The notes: generated from the sequence alone by a model not told the origin. Shown: positions 3,532-39,487, numbered from the stretch's first letter. The stretch: 39,837 nt of DNA from a virus (UHGV-0025829); one strand, 5' to 3'. Numbers and translations: made by a program.

Positions 3532-4473
3532 TTACATAGATGTTTCGTTTAATTCTTCCCGACGAACGCTGTAAACGTCGGTGGCTTTTGCCAGCAGTTC
3601 GTCATCATCTGAAAGTTTTTGTGCAATGTATTTGTAAGCCTTATCCAGTTCGGAGACAGTGCTGTAATTCATCGCTGCGCTGGTAAAGGCCATCAGCATT
3701 TCTTCTGGATCACGGCTATCCGATTTACGCGTTTGCTCATCAGGCTTTTTCGCTGGTTTAGCGTTGATCAGACTGTTCATTCCCGCAGCAGTGGTCGTTT
3801 GCGGAGTAATGTCTCGCTCAACGCGCGGTGCCGTTTCCTGTAATTCGTCTGGGGTGTAGACGCCCATGATTACGTCAGGACAGTGCAGGCGAGACCAGCG
3901 TTTTGTCGCAAGGTATGCGAGTTGTTGTTTCGGATCACTGGCCCAAAGTGTGGAGTTTCTTACCTGTGCTTGAGACAGCATTAACTCAAGCACTCGAGGT
4001 TGATCCTCGCCCTTCATGGTTGCCCATACGCGAACACCGCAGCCTTCTTCGTCTTTTAGAGTCCAGCCTGGTGCGATATATGGATTGCCGTTTTTGGATG
4101 TTTTCTCAACAAACTTACCGATCACGCGTTCCCACGGCCCAAACCACTCGTAGTTGATGCGATCTTTTGTTGGCGACATCGTTGAGATAACTGCGTTTAC
4201 TAATTGGGCTTCATAACCTAGCGTGCCGTTCACAACATGGGTTTTCTGAGCCACGGCAAACGGGTTCATTCCCCACTGCGCAGCCTGCATTGCCACGGCC
4301 ATGCAATCAGCTGGTTTCCCGGCGAGGTGCGCCGGTACCGTTACGCGGCTTTGCGCCATTACCTCGGCGAATTTCATCAGTTGGTTCAAGCCGTCTGGGC
4401 TGAAAATAGTTGCAGCAGTTCCAGCGATTGCTGTGTCTACTGGTGCGTTGATGTTTGCGATGTCGTTGCTCAT
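3532..4473 (-). CDS. recT: RecT-family single-strand annealing recombinase
   Basis: RecT-like central region (AQWGMNPFAVAQKTHVVNG...); ATGA overlap with the upstream nuclease gene. Confidence 0.75.
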   Translation of the reverse strand: MSNDIANINAPVDTAIAGTAATIFSPDGLNQLMKFAEVMAQSRVTVPAHLAGKPADCMAVAMQAAQWGMNPFAVAQKTHVVNGTLGYEAQLVNAVISTMSPTKDRINYEWFGPWERVIGKFVEKTSKNGNPYIAPGWTLKDEEGCGVRVWATMKGEDQPRVLELMLSQAQVRNSTLWASDPKQQLAYLATKRWSRLHCPDVIMGVYTPDELQETAPRVERDITPQTTTAAGMNSLINAKPAKKPDEQTRKSDSRDPEEMLMAFTSAAMNYSTVSELDKAYKYIAQKLSDDDELLAKATDVYSVRREELNETSM

Positions 4474-14875: not shown

Positions 14876-14952
14876 TGGCGTGGCATGCAGGATTCGAACC
14901 TGCGACCAACCGCTTAGAAGGCGGTTGCTCTGTCCAACTGAGCTAATGCCAC
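14876..14952 (-). tRNA. tRNA-Arg (anticodon UCU)
   Basis: Reverse complement folds as a cloverleaf: acceptor GTGGCAT/ATGCCAC, anticodon loop CTTCTAA, T-loop GGTTCGAATCC, 3-prime GCCA. Confidence 0.85.
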
Positions 14953-23557: not shown

Positions 23558-24021
23558 TGATCGACGTTCAAATTATTCCCGCTACCGAAGAGCATCTTCA
23601 GATGATTTTGCCGGATGTTCGTCAGGCTGATATTGACGAACTGTATGCGGTATCACTGATGACTACCGAAGATGCGCTGCGTGTTGGTCTTCGCACTGCG
23701 ACTATGGCCTGGTCAGGGTTCGCGAACGGAGAACTGGTAACCATGTTTGGTGTATCTCCGGCGTCAATGATCGGTGGCAATGGTACACCCTGGCTGGTCG
23801 GAACCAGCCGTATTGAAAAATATCAGAAGACATTTCTTCGCCACTGCCGCCCTGTATTGCAGCAGATGCTGGCAGTTTATCCGCGCCTGGAAAACTACGT
23901 CGACGAAAGAAACCATGTTGCCAAAGCATGGCTGCACTGGCTTGGATTCAGGCTTGAAGAAGCCGCGCCTTATGGCGCTCTTGGTCTTAATTTCCACAGA
24001 TTTCACATGGAGAGAAAATAA
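23557..24021 (+). CDS. Internal virion protein (gp13-like by position)
   Basis: 154 aa, translationally coupled. Confidence 0.4.
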   Translation: MIDVQIIPATEEHLQMILPDVRQADIDELYAVSLMTTEDALRVGLRTATMAWSGFANGELVTMFGVSPASMIGGNGTPWLVGTSRIEKYQKTFLRHCRPVLQQMLAVYPRLENYVDERNHVAKAWLHWLGFRLEEAAPYGALGLNFHRFHMERK

Positions 24022-24560
24022 TGTGTAACCCAGCCATCGCTTTGGTTGCCGTCACAGTGGCATCCACAGCCGCGTCAATGTACAGCCAGAGCAAGCAGGC
24101 AAAATACCAGTCAGCCATAGCTGATCGGAATGCTGAAATTGCTGAAGCTCAGGCACAGGATTCAATCAATCGTGGGAATATTGAAGCGGATCAGCGTCGT
24201 CGTGAAATGCGTCAACGCTCAGGCACTACGGCGGCCACTATGGGGGCTACCGGTGCGGAATTAAGTAGCGGAACAGCTCTTGACGTTTTTGCGGATAATG
24301 CTCAGTTCGGCACTCTTGATGCGTTAACGACAGTGAATAATGCTCAGCGTGAGGCATATGGGTATCAGGTACAGGGAATGAATGCTCAGGCACAGGGGGC
24401 TGCTGCTCAGTCGGCTGCTAAATCATCGATGACCAGCACTTTGTTAACGGCACCACTAAAAGCATACGGTGCATACCAGATGGGCGGGGGAACGTGGAGC
24501 CCGTTCTCTCAGAAGGCTGCGCCGATTTCTGCTGCTGTTGGCACTCCAACCGGTCGATAA
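24021..24560 (+). CDS. Internal virion / ejection protein (gp14-like by position)
   Basis: 179 aa, Ala/Gln-rich with hydrophobic N-terminus. Confidence 0.4.
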   Translation: MCNPAIALVAVTVASTAASMYSQSKQAKYQSAIADRNAEIAEAQAQDSINRGNIEADQRRREMRQRSGTTAATMGATGAELSSGTALDVFADNAQFGTLDALTTVNNAQREAYGYQVQGMNAQAQGAAAQSAAKSSMTSTLLTAPLKAYGAYQMGGGTWSPFSQKAAPISAAVGTPTGR

Positions 24561-29184: not shown

Positions 29185-31659
29185 ATGAGACAGGAATGTA
29201 TACAAGCGGTCCAGCAGGCGGCGCAGCGCACGTTAACGGCGCGAGAAATACAGAACATTGAAGACCGCATTTATCGAAATATGCGCTCCATTGCTCGTGA
29301 TGACCCGATGTCGTGGAGACAACTTTCCGAATCAGAGCGGCTATATCGTGCAGCACAATTGGCATCTGAAGAATTACAGCGAGAAGCGGCATTAAAGAAA
29401 CGTCGTGTGGCCCTCACTATAGCCGCACGTCAGAGATTGGATAAATTTATCAATAGCTATCAAGGGGCTGATGGGAAACTTGGCGCTCTTAACCGTACTA
29501 TTGCTTTTAATGCAGACGGTAAATCGAATTTCCTCTCTGTTGAGTCCAGAACAAAAGCCACTCGTGATTATGCATTGAGTCAATTGCAGGAGGCATTCGA
29601 AGCAGTTGATCCTCGCTTTTTTGGTCTGTTTGAAGATGAAGCGGGCGTACGTGACCTGGTATATGAAATGCGAGGGCAAAATACTGGCAATGCTAAAGCA
29701 AGAAAAGGTGCTAAGGCGTGGAGAGAAGTGACAGATCTACTGCGCCGCCGGTTTAATGATGCTGGTGGGGACATTGGCTATCTCGAAAACTGGGGAATCC
29801 CTCAACATCATTCTATGGAAAAGGTTGGGGCGGTATCAAAGGATAAGTGGGTTAGCGATGTTATAGGTAAGCTGGATCGCAAATATTATATCCGAGCCGA
29901 TGGACAACTGATGAACGATGCCGAGTTGTCTGCATTTCTTGGAGAGGCTTATAACACGATCGCTACTGGTGGGCTGAATAAGCTTACTGATACCGGAATG
30001 CGAATTTCCGGCGCACGTGCTAACCGTGGTAATGCATCACGACAGATACATTTCAAAGATGCAGATTCCTATCTGCAATATCAGCAACTTTATGGCGATC
30101 GCTCTCTATGGGAAATCATGGTCGGTCACCTGGAAGGTATCAGTAAAGATATTGCACTGGTGGAAACATATGGCCCAAACCCTGATCATGTTTTCCGCTC
30201 TCTTCTTGATCAGGTGAAGGCAGAAACGGCAACAGCTAACCCGAGTAAAACCGGTAGCGTCGAGCGGCTGGCGAACAAAACAGAGAACCTGTACAACTTT
30301 ATTTCCGGAAAGACACAGCCTGTTGCGAATCCTCACATCGCGCGCTGGTCTGACAATATCAGAAACTGGCTGGTTGCCAGCAGGCTCGGATCCGCGTTGC
30401 TGTCATCGTTCTCTGATCTTGGAACCATATATCTGTCTGCGAAGGTTACCAACCTTCCAATGAACCAGTTATTCCGCAACCAGCTTGAAGCTATGGACCC
30501 AACGAACCGTACTGAGCTTGCGCGGGCGCGCCGCGCTGGTCTGGCGATGGAATCTCTACTTGGCAGCGTTAACCGCTGGGCGATGGATAATATGGGGCCG
30601 TCTGTGTCTCGTTGGGCGGCAACGGCGGTAATGCGTGCCAGTGGACTTACAGCATGGTCAGATGCGCACAAGCGCGCTTATGGCGTAACCATGATGGGAA
30701 GCCTGGGAGAAGTAGTGTCACGGACACCAGACCTTCGTAGCCTCGATGACTCTGATTTTCGTATCCTGAAAAGCAAAGGGATTACTGACACAGACTGGAG
30801 CGTATGGAAGCTGGCGCAACAGGAGGACTGGGGGAACGGTAATAATACGATGCTGACACCGGAAAGCATTATGCGTATCCCTGATTCAGCAGTTAAACAT
30901 CTTGGTGAGCCTGAACGTGTGAAATTTGAGGCAATGCGTAAACTGCTCGGTGCCGTAACTGAAGAAGTTGATATGGCTGTTATTACACCGGGCGCACGTG
31001 AACAGATGTTCGTAGGGTCTGGTCTTCAGCGTGGAACATGGAAAGGTGAATTAACGAGAAGTGTTTTCCTGTTTAAATCGTTCCCTATCTCGGTAGTTAT
31101 GCGTCACTGGCATAGAGCTATGGGGATGCCGTCTGCTGGTGGGCGTGCGGCATATATAGCAACGTTTTTAGCAAGCACAACCATGCTTGGTGCTCTTTCC
31201 ATGCAGATTACTGATCTTATTAATGGGAGAAATCCAAAAGAAATGACCGGTGACAACATGGTTAAATTCTGGATAAATGCATTTTTAAAAGGTGGTGGGG
31301 CAGGGTTGTATGGTGATTTTCTTTTCTCTGACCACACCAGGTACGGGAGCGGCGCACTAGCGTCGATGCTTGGCCCGGTAGCTGGTCTGGTTGATGACGT
31401 AGTGAAGATTGCTCAGGGCATACCGTTAAATGCTGTGGAAGGGAAGAATGAGCAGACTGGTGGTGATTTGGTTAAGCTTGGGAAAGGTTTGATGCCTGGT
31501 GCGAATCTCTGGTATTTGAAGGCGGCTCTCGATCACATGATCTTTAACCAGATGCAGGAGTATTTTTCACCAGGCTATTTGCGTAAAATGGAGCAACGTT
31601 CAAAGAAAGAGTTTAACCAGACATACTGGTGGCGACCTCAGGATGTCACTCCGCAATAA
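29185..31659 (+). CDS. Large internal virion (ejection) protein
   Basis: 824 aa with GAGAGG SD; last gene of the core-protein block. Confidence 0.5.
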   Translation: MRQECIQAVQQAAQRTLTAREIQNIEDRIYRNMRSIARDDPMSWRQLSESERLYRAAQLASEELQREAALKKRRVALTIAARQRLDKFINSYQGADGKLGALNRTIAFNADGKSNFLSVESRTKATRDYALSQLQEAFEAVDPRFFGLFEDEAGVRDLVYEMRGQNTGNAKARKGAKAWREVTDLLRRRFNDAGGDIGYLENWGIPQHHSMEKVGAVSKDKWVSDVIGKLDRKYYIRADGQLMNDAELSAFLGEAYNTIATGGLNKLTDTGMRISGARANRGNASRQIHFKDADSYLQYQQLYGDRSLWEIMVGHLEGISKDIALVETYGPNPDHVFRSLLDQVKAETATANPSKTGSVERLANKTENLYNFISGKTQPVANPHIARWSDNIRNWLVASRLGSALLSSFSDLGTIYLSAKVTNLPMNQLFRNQLEAMDPTNRTELARARRAGLAMESLLGSVNRWAMDNMGPSVSRWAATAVMRASGLTAWSDAHKRAYGVTMMGSLGEVVSRTPDLRSLDDSDFRILKSKGITDTDWSVWKLAQQEDWGNGNNTMLTPESIMRIPDSAVKHLGEPERVKFEAMRKLLGAVTEEVDMAVITPGAREQMFVGSGLQRGTWKGELTRSVFLFKSFPISVVMRHWHRAMGMPSAGGRAAYIATFLASTTMLGALSMQITDLINGRNPKEMTGDNMVKFWINAFLKGGGAGLYGDFLFSDHTRYGSGALASMLGPVAGLVDDVVKIAQGIPLNAVEGKNEQTGGDLVKLGKGLMPGANLWYLKAALDHMIFNQMQEYFSPGYLRKMEQRSKKEFNQTYWWRPQDVTPQ

Positions 31660-31668
31660 GGAACAACA

Positions 31669-32082
31669 ATGAAGGAATTATTGCTGTTATCGGTATTTTT
31701 GATATCCGCTTGCTCGACATCCTATGATGTTTATGACGGTGTTGATAAGGCATATTGCGACAAAGTTAAAATGGATTTTTCTCTTGCCAAGACGGCGAAG
31801 GATAGTTGTATTGATCACTACGTCAAGACTTATACCAAGCCAGCCTCATCGGCATCTGATATTGCTGAAGGTGCTGTGTTTGAGTGTAACAAGGTGATAT
31901 CCATCGCAGCGAGTTCTTCATACGATGCTGCTGTATGTGCAATGGCTGAAAGAAACGGCATGTCAGTGCAAAAAATTAATAGCATGATAAGCAGTAATGA
32001 CGAAGCCAAAATAAGAACTGATATCAGCTCGGTGAAAAAAGATGCCATGAACAGAGTTGTAAAATATCAGTCATCTTTATAA
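31669..32082 (+). CDS. Lipoprotein (candidate superinfection-exclusion / moron)
   Basis: Signal peptide MKELLLLSVFLISAC with lipobox; six Cys in the mature part. Confidence 0.6.
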   Translation: MKELLLLSVFLISACSTSYDVYDGVDKAYCDKVKMDFSLAKTAKDSCIDHYVKTYTKPASSASDIAEGAVFECNKVISIAASSSYDAAVCAMAERNGMSVQKINSMISSNDEAKIRTDISSVKKDAMNRVVKYQSSL

Positions 32083-32085
32083 GTC

Positions 32086-32097
32086 GTGACATGTCAC
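32086..32097. repeat. 12-bp perfect palindrome GTGACATGTCAC (copy 3 of 3)
   Basis: Exact match 4 bp after the lipoprotein stop and directly before the terminator. Confidence 0.7.
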
Positions 32098-32098
32098 A

Positions 32099-32122
32099 GG
32101 CCGCTTTCGCGGCCTTGTTTTT
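32099..32122 (+). terminator. Rho-independent terminator ending the late virion operon
   Basis: GGCCGC-TTTC-GCGGCC followed by TTGTTTTT. Confidence 0.7.
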
Positions 32123-32282
32123 AACGAATGCCACCGCCGCCCGGGCGGGAATCCGCAGAACGCCCACCGCAGCGGGAGCCGTCAGCGGCAGTATCGCTGT
32201 CGTGCTGACAACGACCGGCAAAGGCCTGAGTTGAAGCTACCAGAGACAACAAAACGAACAGTGCAGCAAATGCTTTTTTCAT
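32121..32282 (-). CDS. Candidate small secreted peptide (53 aa)
   Basis: Signal peptide MKKAFAALFVLLSLVASTQAFA; sigma70-like promoter TTGACG-17-ATAGAT upstream; weak SD; part of a longer spurious ORF in the track. Confidence 0.3.
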   Translation of the reverse strand: MKKAFAALFVLLSLVASTQAFAGRCQHDSDTAADGSRCGGRSADSRPGGGGIR

Positions 32283-32376: not shown

Positions 32377-32817
32377 TTATTCTTCTTCATCATTAAAAAG
32401 CGGATTGTTATTTCCATCTGATGAAAGGAAAGGTATGTGTTCTCTTGAAAATCCAACAATGACAATTTCATTATCATTTTTTGCATAATGAATGCATTCA
32501 TTAGAATGCATTCCGCCAGGGTTGAAATTTAAGTTAATGGTATAATTCTTAAATGTGTTTGGATACCATGTTGGCCCACAATGATAATGCCAATAATTCT
32601 CTTGCTCATAATTGTCTGAGCCTGGAATTTTATCATGGTTATCATCAACCCACGAGGGCTTGTTTTTTCCAACAAGCGCCCTTCCATTGGCAACATCCTC
32701 TAAAAACCTTTGTATGATTTTTATTTCATCATCAGTAAGGAAAGGTCCGTCTACAGCGAAAGGGGTGTTGCTTTCCCCATGTAGAAAACTATTAGATATT
32801 CTAATGTTAAACTTCAA
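32377..32817 (-). CDS. Hypothetical protein, AT-rich foreign-looking gene (146 aa)
   Basis: Asn/Ile/Phe-rich, strongly AT-biased codons compared with neighbours; no motif recognised. Confidence 0.55.
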   Translation of the reverse strand: MKFNIRISNSFLHGESNTPFAVDGPFLTDDEIKIIQRFLEDVANGRALVGKNKPSWVDDNHDKIPGSDNYEQENYWHYHCGPTWYPNTFKNYTINLNFNPGGMHSNECIHYAKNDNEIVIVGFSREHIPFLSSDGNNNPLFNDEEE

Positions 32818-33098: not shown

Positions 33099-33810
33099 TC
33101 AGAAGAACCCAGCTTTGTCGTTGATGTACTCCGCGTGCGTCTGGATATCACGCAGGCATTTACTCACACCAACGATGTAGCAGAACATGGTGGTCAGTTC
33201 CGCCGCCGCGCCCGATACATCATGCCCGTCGTCCTGCAACTGATTCAGCAGATTCATCAGCAATGAGTTCTCCGTCAGGCCGAGAACACCAGACGGTGAA
33301 TGAATCAGACTGCGGTAGCCTGGCTTCAGTGGGGCACTGTAGGTTTTGTTCTCTATCTTCATTGCCTGTATTACTGCTGACGCCGTGGCGTTGGCTACCT
33401 GGTCGGCAACCATCTTTATGCGTTCTTCCTGCGGGAGCGAGTTTTTAATGTAACTTCCGGTGCGGCGGATCTGAGGAAGAACCTCACCTGTAACCCATTT
33501 ACGAAAGCGGTAGGGGATAGTGCCTGGTGTCACCGCATCGCGGCAGCGGAGGATCAGTGTGTAGAGGCCTGACTCGGAGATGATGTTGATCTCTTTTACT
33601 CGGCTGTCAAAAATTGCACGATGTTCATGCCCTATGTTGAACATAGACCTTTCATCATCATCCAGTTTTTCAAGTGATTGGGTGACGTTTTGGATACGCA
33701 GCGCACTACAAACGTCTTGGGCTACAAACCATGGTTGGCCATCGATAATGATGGAACGGATAGGGTTAACAGATTCAAATTTGAAGATGGCAGTTTGAGC
33801 ATTAGCCATG
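33099..33810 (-). CDS. Antirepressor (Bro-N / Ant-like N-terminal domain plus C-terminal domain)
   Basis: FKFESVNPIRSIIIDGQPWFVAQDVCSALRIQNVTQSLEKLDDDE matches the Bro-N fold pattern; ATG at 33810 with GGAGAT SD; C-terminus paralogous to the 34125..34382 product. Confidence 0.7.
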
Positions 33811-33827
33811 GTGGTTATCTCCACTTA

Positions 33828-33841: not shown

Positions 33842-33963
33842 CACCGCAACGCCAATTACTGGTGGTGAACTGGACAAGGTTGGCGTACCGGCCTAAGTGG
33901 TACCGGCGTCCTTTCGGACCCCTGCCCAGCCCACCATAATTCGGATATGGCTGTGCTTAACGC

Positions 33964-33988
33964 ATAAAAAAACCACGTCTGGCGTGGT
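33964..33988 (-). terminator. Rho-independent terminator inside the ant upstream region
   Basis: ACCACG-TCTGG-CGTGGT hairpin with T-run on the minus strand. Confidence 0.5.
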
Positions 33989-34078
33989 ATGCGCCACTTA
34001 GTAACTCGGGACGCCAATCCCGGCACTGGATTTTGCCAGTACCCGATTACTATGGCACAAGAGGAGTGCGATGTAAAT

Positions 34079-34577: not shown

Positions 34578-37280
34578 ATGACGGTCTCAACCGAAGTTGA
34601 CCACAACGAATACACAGGTAACGGCGTTACGACATCATTTCCTTATACCTTTAGGGTTTTCAATAAATCTGATCTGGTAGTGCAGGTGATTGACCCTGAC
34701 GAGAATATCACTGTGCTGGCTCTTGATACTGATTACACGGTGACGGGGGCTGGAGGATATACTGGCGGGAATGTTGTGCTGATGTCCCCGCTGGCCAACG
34801 GATGGCAGATTTCTATCTCGCGTGACCTTCCAGTTACCCAGGAGACTGACCTACGCAACCAGGGGAAGTTCTTCGCAGAAGTGCATGAAGATGCGTTCGA
34901 CAAGCTGACCATGCTGATCCAGCAGTGCTTCAGCTTTCTCCGACTGGCGCTGCGCAAGCCGTCGTTCATCGCTAACTATTACGACGCGCTCAACAACCGC
35001 ATTCGTAACCTGCGTGACCCGTCACAGGAACAGGATGCGGCCACAAAGAATTATGTTGATGGTCAGATTGTTGACAACACCAATGCATGGAAAGCCGCGG
35101 ACGTCGTTCTTGATAATAAAATTGACAGCAATTTTCGGCGCACTCTTAGGGTTCCTGAGAGCAATATCCAAGTATTGCCTACCATAGATGCAAGAAAGAA
35201 GAAATTATTCGCCTGGGATGATTCAGGAAATCCAATTTCTGTACTTCCTGAATCAGGATCTGCGTCTGATGTTCTTATTGAGTTAGCTTCCAGTTATGGT
35301 TTTAGCCTTATCGGGCAGGCTACGTATTCGCAGATCCGTAATTTCACAGGATCAGGTAACTCAATAATGTGCTGCGGTTGCGAAACACTTCTGGATGGTG
35401 GTCAGGGCATGTTCGATCAGGTTCCTGGTGGGGCAGTTATGACCACTCCAGACGATGGCTGTGTATTTATTCGCGATACTATTGGGCGGTTATGGAAACG
35501 CCGTTATGAGGGAAATGAGATCCTGATGGCATGGGCCGGGGCTAAAAGCCTGAAACAAACTTCGGAACCGCAGGACCCGGCCTTTAGAAAGTGCCTTCAG
35601 GCCGCTGCCTCTTTGTCTGAGTCAGGCTATCCGCAATCTATTATCCGGGGGCTGGACAACGCCACCACATACCTTGCTGAAAAGCACCATATCCGCTGCG
35701 GTAACTTCCCGGAGTACATGGCGTGGAAACTTCCACCTGACGGCGGCGGCCGGCGTTTCGGTATTAAAGGGACGTGGGCTCAGGGGTTAGGTGCCGGTTG
35801 GTTTGTCGTACAGGCTAACCATCCGCTGTTCGATTTCACAATCGATAATACCGGCATTGATTTCAATCTGGATGCGTATACCGATGAAGAAATCAAAGTC
35901 CTCGTCGAAGACAACTATATTTTACGTCTGGAGGCGATGGTAAATGCCCCGGAATTTAATGTTCATGCAGGCAACCACCCGGGGACTGTACTTTACAGCC
36001 TCGGTAAATCTGATTATTCAGCGGTAACCGCACAGTGGCCTGATTTGACTACAGTGCTTCCGTCTATCCAGAACGTGGGCAAAGCGGCGTTTAATATTAA
36101 GCACTGCGGCAGGGATTTCCTGCTGAAGAACTGCGGTGCGGGTATGGGGCATTTCCACTCCGTCTGGACACAGGATAACTCTCAGCCGGGATATATTTAT
36201 TCCTGTTACGACCTGACGTTGACCTATGAGGACTACGTCCCCCATACAGAAGAACGCGGGGGGCTTATTTTCGAAGCGTGCGGGACCCTGTCTCTTGAAA
36301 ATATCCTGACCGGTGCGGGAGGCGTCGGGCATTTATGCATCTGGGACTGTCGAAATGTGACCATCAACAAGCACGTCTCGATATGCGGCGCACCTACCTA
36401 CGCGCAGTCGAACCCGAATCTGTATGCCGTGGAAATCTGTAACTCTGAGCTGGCTGTCTATGGTGTGCATGCCCAGGGCTCTGGCAAGTTTATGCGTATC
36501 GGCTTTAACTCACGCGTGACGTTCTACCACACGACGGCGTGGGACATTGCGCAGATGATTCTGGGTACCAATGACCTGAGTCTACTGAAGTATCGTGGTC
36601 AGCGAGCTGCGGTCCTTAACGACCCTATTAAAGTATTCCTTGAATCTGGATTTGTTCAGTCTGCGAATACTGCAGATAAGGGCTGGCCTTGCCAGCCGCT
36701 GATCGTGTTTGATGAAACAATCGGTGGTGATTTCCAGCTGTTGTTCAACCTCGAGGCAAATAATAACCACTCAGGATACGATACCCAGCCTGAGGCGTTA
36801 CTTGCGCTGATAGATATTCGATCTACCAGTCCTAATGGCGAGGTTGTCTTGGGTGAGCAGTCAAAACTGGAAGGTAATACGACAAACTACGTTGTGCGGC
36901 TGGCGAATAAAAACCAGCTCAAGGACGTATTTACTCGCAAAACTAACTTTGTTCGCATCCGGTATACGGATGATAACTCACAGTCTTCCTTTGCTTTGAG
37001 GCATGCTAATCACCCACTTCAAGGTACGGTTGTTGGACGTAACGCGTCCTACTCATATCCATATAAGCGTCCTGGCTTGTACAGCGTCAAAATCACTATT
37101 CCATCCGGTGGTGGATCTTTTTCTGTAACGCATAACGGATTCACGATTTATGAACAGGACCAGCCTGGAATTCATCGTGTACTTATTGATCTGAGATTCC
37201 AGGAAACCGTGCAGATCACTATTAACGGTGGCGAAAACGTCACTATGACAAACGCCGAATGGCGATATTATGTGGGGTAG
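34578..37280 (+). CDS. Tailspike / tail fiber with T7 gp17-like N-terminal adaptor domain and beta-helix-type receptor-binding body
   Basis: 900 aa; N-terminus YTGNGVTTSFPYTFRVFNKSDLVV resembles podovirus tail-fiber N-termini; GGAG SD. Confidence 0.75.
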   Translation: MTVSTEVDHNEYTGNGVTTSFPYTFRVFNKSDLVVQVIDPDENITVLALDTDYTVTGAGGYTGGNVVLMSPLANGWQISISRDLPVTQETDLRNQGKFFAEVHEDAFDKLTMLIQQCFSFLRLALRKPSFIANYYDALNNRIRNLRDPSQEQDAATKNYVDGQIVDNTNAWKAADVVLDNKIDSNFRRTLRVPESNIQVLPTIDARKKKLFAWDDSGNPISVLPESGSASDVLIELASSYGFSLIGQATYSQIRNFTGSGNSIMCCGCETLLDGGQGMFDQVPGGAVMTTPDDGCVFIRDTIGRLWKRRYEGNEILMAWAGAKSLKQTSEPQDPAFRKCLQAAASLSESGYPQSIIRGLDNATTYLAEKHHIRCGNFPEYMAWKLPPDGGGRRFGIKGTWAQGLGAGWFVVQANHPLFDFTIDNTGIDFNLDAYTDEEIKVLVEDNYILRLEAMVNAPEFNVHAGNHPGTVLYSLGKSDYSAVTAQWPDLTTVLPSIQNVGKAAFNIKHCGRDFLLKNCGAGMGHFHSVWTQDNSQPGYIYSCYDLTLTYEDYVPHTEERGGLIFEACGTLSLENILTGAGGVGHLCIWDCRNVTINKHVSICGAPTYAQSNPNLYAVEICNSELAVYGVHAQGSGKFMRIGFNSRVTFYHTTAWDIAQMILGTNDLSLLKYRGQRAAVLNDPIKVFLESGFVQSANTADKGWPCQPLIVFDETIGGDFQLLFNLEANNNHSGYDTQPEALLALIDIRSTSPNGEVVLGEQSKLEGNTTNYVVRLANKNQLKDVFTRKTNFVRIRYTDDNSQSSFALRHANHPLQGTVVGRNASYSYPYKRPGLYSVKITIPSGGGSFSVTHNGFTIYEQDQPGIHRVLIDLRFQETVQITINGGENVTMTNAEWRYYVG

Positions 37281-37283
37281 AAA

Positions 37284-37547
37284 ATGTCATTGAAAGGTCG
37301 TTTTTTTATCGAAACTTCTGGTGGGACTTTTGTCTATACCAAGGCTGAAATTTTTAATCAGGGGGGAATGCCTGAAAACATCAACCTGAGCGTTTTGTTT
37401 TCCGAACCTGAGAGCGATCAAGCCCACCCAACCGCAATGCGAAATTACACATTTACTCCAGATATGAACTCAGCGGAAAACCTCTGGGTTCAGGGTTATT
37501 CTTATCTGAAAACGCAAACAGATTTTACAGGGGCTGAGGAAATTTAA
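37284..37547 (+). CDS. Hypothetical protein downstream of the tailspike
   Basis: 87 aa starting 4 bp after the tailspike stop. Confidence 0.45.
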   Translation: MSLKGRFFIETSGGTFVYTKAEIFNQGGMPENINLSVLFSEPESDQAHPTAMRNYTFTPDMNSAENLWVQGYSYLKTQTDFTGAEEI

Positions 37548-37674
37548 TGGGATTCCCTGAAGGTCTTGGATAATGCTAAGTATCACTATTACCATTTATT
37601 CATATACGGTTAATTGTGTATGATGAACTTACCCAACTAAGGAGGTTCATCATGCATAGTAAACGGTGGTCATC

Positions 37675-38990: not shown

Positions 38991-39487
38991 TCACGGCATT
39001 CGTGAAAGCATACTGGAAACAGTTGCTTATCGTGTCGATGCTTGCTGCTCTGGTGGCCAGCGGCGTTGTCGCCTGGAATATTCACGGTGACAGGCAGTAC
39101 GACGCCGGCTATGCGCAGGCGAAGGCAGACCGCAAAGCAGAAGATGATAAAGCCCGTCAACATGACGAACAGGAGAAAGCAACCAATGAACGAGAAGCGC
39201 AGCAGAAGATCGACCAGGCGCGCAATGATGCTCTTGATGCTGCCGCTCGCGCTGGCCGGCTGCAGCAGCAGCTCGTTGCCATCCGTGAGCAGCTCAGGCA
39301 GTATAACGCCACTGTCGGCGCTGGGACGTCAGCCGCAGACACCGGAGTTTTGCTTGCCGACGTGCTCGAAAAATCTCTCGAACGAAACCGGCAATTGGCA
39401 GAATACGCTGACCGGGCAGCTGAATCCGGAAGAGTCTGTGAACGGCAATATGACGAACTGACGAAGCGGGGCACAATTTCCCGGTGA
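38987..39487 (+). CDS. Rz-like i-spanin
   Basis: ATGA overlap with the endolysin stop; N-terminal TM helix then Gln/Ala-rich coiled coil. Confidence 0.7.
   Translation: MITAFVKAYWKQLLIVSMLAALVASGVVAWNIHGDRQYDAGYAQAKADRKAEDDKARQHDEQEKATNEREAQQKIDQARNDALDAAARAGRLQQQLVAIREQLRQYNATVGAGTSAADTGVLLADVLEKSLERNRQLAEYADRAAESGRVCERQYDELTKRGTISR
39186..39461 (+). CDS. Rz1-like o-spanin lipoprotein embedded in the +1 frame of Rz
   Basis: Arg-rich n-region, hydrophobic core, lipobox LAGC, Ser/Pro-rich mature part; lies wholly inside Rz. Confidence 0.6.
   Translation: MNEKRSRRSTRRAMMLLMLPLALAGCSSSSLPSVSSSGSITPLSALGRQPQTPEFCLPTCSKNLSNETGNWQNTLTGQLNPEESVNGNMTN

Follow-up and report, generated by a model that had tools for sequence, protein, structure and literature searches.

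A 137-amino-acid (aa) lipoprotein precursor encoded at positions 31669-32082 of the window UHGV-0025829 (the whole 39,837-nucleotide stretch of viral DNA analyzed here) is the product of an accessory cassette, which occupies a fixed, exchangeable slot directly behind the internal-virion/ejection-type genes of a temperate podophage. The window is a phiV10/epsilon15-like phage (Uetakevirus) resident as an Escherichia coli prophage; the region is 99.3% identical to E. coli UMNK88, where the prophage adjoins guaA. From the predicted location of the protein, the linkage of its gene to ejection genes, the swappable cassette, the genomic context of a homolog in Providencia and the precedent of P22 SieA, we infer both a function and a target, at a probability of about 0.35: the lipoprotein would act on the periplasmic side of the outer membrane and stop incoming phage from entering once O-antigen has been bound.

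The virion operon ends in an exchangeable slot

The lipoprotein gene is a moron-like cassette by two measures, as it is present in some relatives and absent from others and its guanine-plus-cytosine (GC) content deviates from that of the window (Table 1). Two borders are common to every slot variant, on the left a sequence ending in CAATAAGGA, which comprises the stop codon of the preceding gene and the Shine-Dalgarno sequence, and on the right C-GTGACATGTCAC-A, after which the terminator begins, and megablast matches to other phages stop exactly at these borders. The palindrome GTGACATGTCAC is kept in every slot variant compared, Salmonella phage SPN1S included, and may mark a border of recombination or bind a protein.

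The occupants of the slot were surveyed as the first open reading frame (ORF) after the gene for the 824-aa protein in 80 related IMG/VR loci. A 57-aa two-helix membrane protein fills the slot in 36 of the 80, the lipoprotein in 21 (two copies being truncated), a 46-aa two-helix membrane protein equivalent to phiV10p21 and SPN1S_0020 in 16, and a 62-aa protein in four. In five loci the occupant differs despite a C-terminus of the 824-aa protein that is at least 99% identical to that of the window, indicating that exchange at the slot is recent. The 46- and 57-aa proteins share with the lipoprotein the same slot, Shine-Dalgarno sequence, palindrome and terminator and are likewise envelope proteins, but they are unrelated to it in sequence and are inner-membrane peptides. 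Of the approximately 560 E. coli genomes that carry a prophage of this type, they fill the slot in most, compared with 22 for the lipoprotein; the flanks are found in 562 and the lipoprotein gene in 22 of 5,426 complete E. coli genomes. In phage phiv142-3 (L003), the 57-aa slot gene at 4261-4440 is unannotated in the deposited record, and the slot there holds an extra second gene (118 aa, phrog_3075).

The lipoprotein ATG lies 9 nucleotides (nt) past the TAA stop of the 824-aa gene, and the gene ends 16 nt before the terminator, consistent with the earlier note, which had placed it right after the last core-protein gene and before a terminator. The strong terminator hairpin (32098-32115) has a 7-base-pair (bp) stem with six G-C pairs and a fold of -17.9 kcal/mol (z = -3.5), and the homologous site is annotated as a terminator in phiV10. 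All slot variants have in common the coding sequence before the slot and the terminator after it, which serves as a shared operon terminator.

A conserved family of predicted outer-membrane lipoproteins

The encoded protein matches the phrog_8691 model over its full length (E = 1.6e-91). Lipoprotein signals were defined by a positive n-region, a hydrophobic h-region and the lipobox [LVI][ASTVI][GAS]C with the cysteine at position 15-35. The N-terminus, MKELLLLSVFLISA followed by C15, carries K2 in its n-region and has a hydrophobic core without charged residues, and it agrees with the simple lipobox as well as with the PROSITE PS51257-type rule, upholding the lipoprotein signal that the earlier note had read from this plus-strand ORF. 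The lipobox patterns fit all seven diverse family members, and among all ORFs of the window, on both strands, the same pattern occurs in just two, the lipoprotein and the o-spanin candidate of the lysis cassette. As one of the two is the expected o-spanin, the lipobox signal is specific and not a product of chance.

After Sec export, lipidation by Lgt and cleavage by LspA are expected from the signal. In E. coli, Asp at position +2 acts as a Lol avoidance signal, and lipoproteins that lack it are sorted to the outer membrane. Residue +2 is Ser or Thr, and never Asp, in all seven family members, and the lipoprotein is predicted to be sorted to the outer membrane. If so, the tether of only about eight residues means that the domain must act at the periplasmic face. 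There is no transmembrane segment beyond the signal peptide.

The lipoprotein contains five cysteines (15, 30, 47, 73 and 90), four of them in addition to the lipidated one, rather than the six that had earlier been counted in the mature part. These four form a twin CX16C arrangement (C30/C47 and C73/C90) that is invariant in all seven diverse members, with spacings of 17, 25-26 and 17 residues. The AlphaFold2 model is all-helical (mean predicted local distance difference test score 85, predicted template modeling score 0.70), the signal peptide alone being disordered, with helices at residues 24-55, 62-72, 74-96, 100-106, 109-115 and 119-136. C30 and C47 lie on the first of the two long helices (24-55), while C73 is at the start and C90 near the end of the second (74-96). 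Because the cysteines of each pair are equally spaced at 17 residues, two staples could form across an antiparallel hairpin, and disulfides C30-C90 and C47-C73 probably hold the two long helices together in this way.

The gene is real and under strong purifying selection. Relative to the copy in a Citrobacter prophage (L087), the lipoprotein is 95% identical, with 40 nucleotide and seven amino-acid differences, giving a ratio of nonsynonymous to synonymous divergence (dN/dS) of 0.05 at a synonymous divergence (dS) of 0.51. The dS of the adjacent 824-aa gene between the same two prophages is saturated (3.9), indicating that the cassette was exchanged between these lineages far more recently than its neighbor.

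The family is small. A word-indexed search of 5.8 billion proteins returned 17 clusters, nearly all at least 95% identical and from E. coli, Enterobacter and Citrobacter, with one outlier at 82% and one, from Cedecea, at 55%. An exhaustive HMMER profile search of 1.84 billion representatives found seven proteins, none annotated; six of these matches are 137-142 aa long and all are lipoproteins of the same family, four being new, at 26-44% identity. The lipobox and the four cysteines are invariant at 26-55% identity. A scan of 185,579 species-representative genomes for the family gave one partial locus, and tblastn against 50,697 deposited phage genomes gave no match to the lipoprotein. Such a tiny family, with no known function and absent from the deposited phage genomes, might suggest an ORF that arose by chance or a remnant in decay. 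This idea is refuted by the data on selection and conservation (dN/dS of 0.05 at a dS of 0.51, the invariant lipobox and cysteines), and the confident AlphaFold2 model and the truncation of only two of 23 copies in the survey also speak against it, leaving it a negligible probability.

Linkage to ejection genes and probable late expression

The lipoprotein gene is preceded by a T7 gp14-family gene and then by genes for proteins of 935, 600 and 824 aa, and the 824-aa gene is the final large one in the virion operon. Its product is a homolog of epsilon15 gp17 and of phiV10p20, the latter annotated as a virion structural protein. These genes form an internal-virion/ejection-type module and are not tail genes, so that the previous description of the lipoprotein gene as adjacent to tail genes is imprecise; another 2.5 kb separate it from the tailspike gene. 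The possibility that the lipoprotein is itself a virion component was rejected, as a Sec/lipobox signal would be incompatible with packaging in the cytoplasm.

Within the 370 nt upstream of the lipoprotein gene, no plus-strand match to the sigma-70 consensus reaches 9 of 12 positions (the best has 8 of 12), although a weak, factor- or activator-dependent promoter inside the 824-aa gene could escape such a scan. A spacer of 9 nt is too short to accommodate a promoter inside the cassette. The most likely, and parsimonious, reading is that the gene is transcribed by read-through with the virion genes, during late lytic growth, and the co-expression with virion genes proposed in the earlier note is thus probable for a gene that closes the late virion operon and for which no separate promoter was found. 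Phage morons carry their own promoter and terminator for expression from a repressed prophage, and neither was found for the lipoprotein gene, whose late read-through timing sets it apart from classical morons.

Co-transcription with late genes, as the most parsimonious reading, would also suit a late accessory of the envelope or of lysis, one that tunes lysis timing or inhibition, weakens the outer membrane or protects the envelope until assembly ends, and the alternative occupants of the slot, tiny two-helix proteins, share the topology of class II holins and antiholins. However, the window already has a complete lysis cassette at 37.7-39.5 kb, after the tailspike gene and 5.6 kb from the lipoprotein gene, consisting of two holin-family genes, a GH19 endolysin, a DUF2514 i-spanin and an embedded o-spanin candidate. 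In addition, the 96% of related E. coli prophages from which the lipoprotein is missing manage without it, and the stand-alone homolog in Providencia described below is found outside any phage lysis context; a lysis-related role is therefore decidedly unlikely. An o-spanin of the Rz1 type is a short, often proline-rich outer-membrane lipoprotein whose gene lies within or beside that of the i-spanin in the lysis cassette, and this identity was rejected for the lipoprotein, which is 137 aa long, helical and distant from a lysis cassette that has an o-spanin candidate of its own.

Homologs in diverged podophages and in Providencia islands

A place just behind the internal-virion genes is kept in four lineages with strongly diverged ejection proteins, which ties the family to the ejection module. 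In a Cedecea prophage the homolog (55% identity) comes immediately after the last of the large internal-virion genes; identity to the window there is 55-69% for backbone genes but only 24% for the 848-aa neighbor, and the 600-aa protein is undetectable. The homolog in L094/L095 (27%) is found one 191-aa gene past an 855-aa protein. That in L097 and L100 (44%) is preceded, directly so in L097, by the C-terminal part of a T7-gp16-like 'internal virion protein with endolysin domain', and an antirepressor gene comes after it.

A different setting is seen for the homolog P0020 (139 aa, 27% identity, E = 3e-9 to the family profile) of Providencia rettgeri, P. alcalifaciens and P. stuartii, which stands alone in integrative islands of the integrase/AlpA/DUF3987/YfjJ type. 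Its neighbors include a UvrD gene paired with one for a 2,140-aa DEAD/MZB protein (Druantia-like), a pair encoding an OLD-family ATPase and UvrD (Gabija-like), type I and type III restriction-modification genes and a SIR2 gene. This setting favors, with limited weight, an anti-phage role for the family and a function that is independent of phage late proteins.

The same islands, in which the stand-alone homolog accompanies other cargo, would also accommodate a moron for host fitness or virulence, that is, an envelope trait such as serum or complement resistance, stress tolerance or adhesion that is unrelated to phage entry. Lambda Bor and TraT are outer-membrane lipoproteins with roles in serum or complement resistance and provide a precedent, and the low-GC accessory cassette is carried by porcine, avian and human E. 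coli isolates, pathotypes included. We regard this explanation as unlikely, since the gene has no promoter of its own for the lysogen, where the trait would matter, Pfam and NCBIfam revealed no similarity to Bor/Iss or TraT, and the recurrent position after the ejection genes of diverged podophages would be left unexplained.

A proposed block to phage entry and its relation to known systems

We propose that the lipoprotein, once exported by Sec, lipidated by Lgt and cleaved by LspA, would display a compact helical domain tethered at the periplasmic face of the outer membrane. From there the domain would disturb the ejection conduit that spans the envelope, either at its outer-membrane end or through some outer-membrane component required by the conduit. 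The result would be superinfection exclusion late in the cycle, and progeny might thereby be spared wasteful ejection into infected cells and debris, a benefit that has also been put forward for T5 exclusion proteins.

The closest functional precedent is P22 SieA, which blocks DNA delivery through the conduit of ejection proteins and is marked by the motif FxRYPxEAxxFNK (PMC10883804). SieA and the lipoprotein are both envelope proteins of temperate, O-antigen-specific podophages, and both genes map between the final ejection gene and that of the tailspike, beside an antirepressor (immI-type) region; in P22 this interval runs from ejection gene 16 to tailspike gene 9, next to immI. However, SieA is a polytopic inner-membrane protein, whereas the lipoprotein is predicted to reside in the outer membrane, and the two show no homology. 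The SieA motif is absent from the lipoprotein, and of the hallmarks of the SieA family map position alone is shared. Strict synteny with sieA was also considered and downgraded, as sieA runs in the other direction and has a promoter to itself.

Database searches offered no alternative assignment. Pfam, NCBIfam and PADLOC contained nothing above threshold for the lipoprotein, returning only sub-threshold noise (linker histone, Spackle and others), and PHROGs contained no match beyond phrog_8691 and, weakly, phrog_3392, both of unknown function. PADLOC-DB gave no match for the lipoprotein of the window, P0018 or P0020 and non-significant ones (E 0.006-0.015) for P0021 and P0022. No match to the lipoprotein was found in the PDB by sequence or profile, and the best Foldseek E values were 0.34 against the PDB and 0.47 against viral models. 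With sequence, profile and fold searches empty, the lipoprotein falls outside the Llp/Cor, Ltp, Spackle, SieA and spanin families.

The comparison with Llp and Cor deserves particular attention because the earlier note had likened the lipoprotein to these receptor-masking proteins. T5 Llp is an exclusion lipoprotein of the inner leaflet of the outer membrane that binds FhuA, and its gene adjoins that of the receptor-binding protein; by this exclusion, T5 progeny are spared non-productive adsorption to fragments of lysed cells. Applied to the lipoprotein, masking would mean that it binds an outer-membrane protein (a TonB-dependent transporter or porin) from the periplasm and allosterically closes its surface loops, blocking adsorption. 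Like Llp and Cor (phi80, T1 and N15), the lipoprotein as predicted is a disulfide-containing phage lipoprotein at the inner leaflet of the outer membrane, where its short tether would hold the domain at the membrane, and the T5 study raised the possibility that lipoprotein-mediated exclusion is widespread among TonB-dependent transporters. A conserved host target would also fit the 95% identity to the Citrobacter copy, compared with 67-91% for neighboring proteins, and its dS of 0.51 next to saturated values. In contrast to these points of agreement, no similarity to Llp/Cor was found in sequence, profile or fold; Llp and Cor are small and have one disulfide, whereas the lipoprotein is twice their size, with 123 mature residues, an all-helical domain and two predicted disulfides, and its gene is not beside that of a receptor-binding protein. 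Moreover, phages of the phiV10 type recognize O-antigen and exclude by O-acetylation. Self-exclusion by masking of a protein receptor is therefore not expected, and a lipoprotein that faces the periplasm cannot mask O-antigen. No outer-membrane protein receptor is known for the phiV10-type group, which further counts against masking. Taken together, the analogy did not survive the comparison, and masking is unlikely.

Two other systems resemble the lipoprotein in part. Ltp of TP-J34, a prophage of Streptococcus thermophilus, is a helical lipoprotein of similar size that blocks DNA injection after adsorption by targeting the tape measure protein; unlike the lipoprotein, it is surface-exposed, belongs to a Gram-positive host and is expressed from the prophage. 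None of the seven family members matched the Ltp family in Pfam at E <= 1, and no sequence or fold match was found in the PDB. T4 Spackle is a small secreted protein, not a lipoprotein, that inhibits the tail lysozyme gp5 of incoming phage in the periplasm. As proposed here, the lipoprotein would likewise be a small exported protein directed from the periplasm against the penetration apparatus of incoming phage. No fold match was found, and the sole link is a sub-threshold score of the Spackle model (PF25676) for one of the seven members (10.7 bits vs a 27-bit cut-off, E = 0.82) over residues 1-56, which include the signal peptide.

Several observations weigh against the proposed block to entry. 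The lipoprotein has, by sequence, no homology to any protein of known function. The lack of a detectable promoter within 370 nt and the 9-nt spacer mean that expression in the lysogen, the classical setting of exclusion by temperate phages, is not supported; in this the lipoprotein gene, on the same strand as the late gene before it and with no detectable promoter, contrasts with P22 sieA, which runs on the other strand and is expressed in the prophage from a promoter of its own. Pairing with very different large ejection proteins makes a specific partnership unlikely, and one with the 824-aa protein was rejected, as the Cedecea lipoprotein retains 55% identity against 24% for the counterpart of the 824-aa protein and none detectable for that of the 600-aa protein. 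The alternative occupants of the slot are inner-membrane peptides, indicating that the slot fixes neither a compartment nor necessarily a single function. The Providencia homolog is distant, and it travels in a block (locus 7095-9363 in L091-L093) of 2.3-2.6 kb that is 98.6-99.4% identical across islands with differing defense genes and that contains an IS5-type transposase fragment, P0020 itself at 30% GC and a Q-antiterminator fragment; its location in defense islands may thus be incidental.

A more specific version of the proposed block would make the twin-CX16C family a podophage-specific exclusion class that caps or mis-assembles the T7 gp14-like pore end of the incoming ejection conduit, an outer-membrane counterpart of SieA of which the two-helix slot peptides would be inner-membrane versions. 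We consider this version improbable. The probability that remains beyond the readings discussed here is assigned to functions that we have not thought of.

Accessory envelope lipoproteins of phages are well known, while the literature searched describes neither this family nor its helical fold with twin CX16C and its constant placement behind podophage ejection genes; queries with phiV10, Uetakevirus, superinfection, lipoprotein and the RefSeq accession returned nothing on the lipoprotein. P22 SieA is the sole exclusion system so far thought to act on the podophage ejection conduit (PMC10883804). Little is understood of how podophages build the conduit that carries their DNA through the Gram-negative envelope, and the lipoprotein, if it acts as proposed, would be a useful probe of this process. 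It would also be a compact single-gene resistance determinant in prophages of E. coli, Citrobacter, Enterobacter and Cedecea and would matter for the prediction of host range in phage therapy or typing. If the lipoprotein has no effect on phage, it is merely another uncharacterized prophage lipoprotein. Whatever its function, the slot, with a fixed Shine-Dalgarno sequence on the left, a palindrome and terminator on the right and genes for at least four unrelated envelope proteins between them, is a tidy natural system for the exchange of accessory genes in phage late operons.

Neighboring features of the window

Table 1. Features of the window in and around the lipoprotein cassette, with positions counted from its first nucleotide.
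Feature	Position	Strand	Remarks
Lipoprotein precursor gene, 137 aa	31669..32082	+	phrog_8691; RefSeq WP_000661385.1
Signal peptide MKELLLLSVFLISA	31669..31710	+	Residues 1-14, lipobox residues L-I-S-A included; PROSITE-type pattern
Mature lipoprotein, 123 aa (predicted)	31711..32079	+	Lipidated Cys15, Ser at +2, 8-residue tether, all-helical domain
Exchangeable cassette, 422 bp	31663..32084	+	39% GC vs 50% for the window; junction comparison
Shine-Dalgarno sequence AAGGA	31658..31662	+	Overlaps TAA stop of 824-aa gene; 6 nt before ATG
Perfect 12-bp palindrome GTGACATGTCAC	32086..32097		Right border of cassette, immediately before operon terminator
Intrinsic terminator AGGCCGC-TTTC-GCGGCCT + TGTTTTT	32098..32122	+	Between lipoprotein gene and convergent 53-aa gene
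T7 gp14-family core protein gene	24021-24560		Three genes upstream of 824-aa gene; family match
824-aa internal virion/core (ejection-type) protein gene	29185..31659	+	phrog_684 'virion structural protein', E=0
53-aa ORF	32121-32282	-	Convergent to lipoprotein gene; phrog_14503 'membrane associated protein' (moron category)
146-aa ORF	32377-32817	-	Lowest-GC stretch of region (35-38%); phrog_5954 (unknown function)
Bro-N antirepressor gene	33099-33824	-	
C4 antisense RNA	33858-33941	-	RF01695, 66 bits (Rfam gathering level); directly upstream of Bro-N gene
isrK Hfq-binding RNA	33966-34042	-	RF01394, 63.5 bits (Rfam gathering level); upstream of Bro-N gene
Tailspike gene	34578-37280		2.5 kb past lipoprotein gene, beyond opposite-strand gene block
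o-spanin candidate, 91 aa from start used	39186-39461	+	Lipobox ORF; N-terminus MNEKRSRRSTRRAMMLLMLPLALAG followed by C

Downstream of the lipoprotein gene, the opposite strand carries genes for a 53-aa secreted peptide, a 146-aa low-GC ORF, a 55-aa ORF and a Bro-N antirepressor. The product of the 53-aa ORF has a cleavable-looking signal peptide, MKKAFAALFVLLSLVASTQAFA followed by G, and then a 31-residue tail rich in Gly, Arg and Asp with two cysteines, and in some relatives it is annotated as a 'transmembrane anchored protein'. By strand and position, this ORF rather than the lipoprotein gene is the counterpart of P22 sieA. The C4 RNA, isrK and the Bro-N gene make up an immI-like antirepressor control region of the P1/P7 type between the ejection operon and the tailspike gene, at a map position comparable to that of P22 immI. 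A Pfam search with the 146-aa ORF gave no match; some near-identical E. coli prophages have a YafO-family type II toxin annotated near its position instead, which suggests a second variable slot.

In the lysis cassette, the o-spanin candidate sits out of frame inside the DUF2514 i-spanin gene and is left unannotated by RefSeq in the UMNK88 relative. The interval between the tailspike and holin genes (37281-37665 in the window) contains no ORF of at least 100 aa and so no O-antigen-modifying gene, and in relatives the same interval holds oac (phiV10), an acyltransferase gene (Cedecea) or a Wzy_C or acyltransferase gene (Citrobacter type). A tRNA-Arg gene (anticodon TCT) is located at 14876-14952 on the minus strand, opposite to the morphogenesis genes that surround it.

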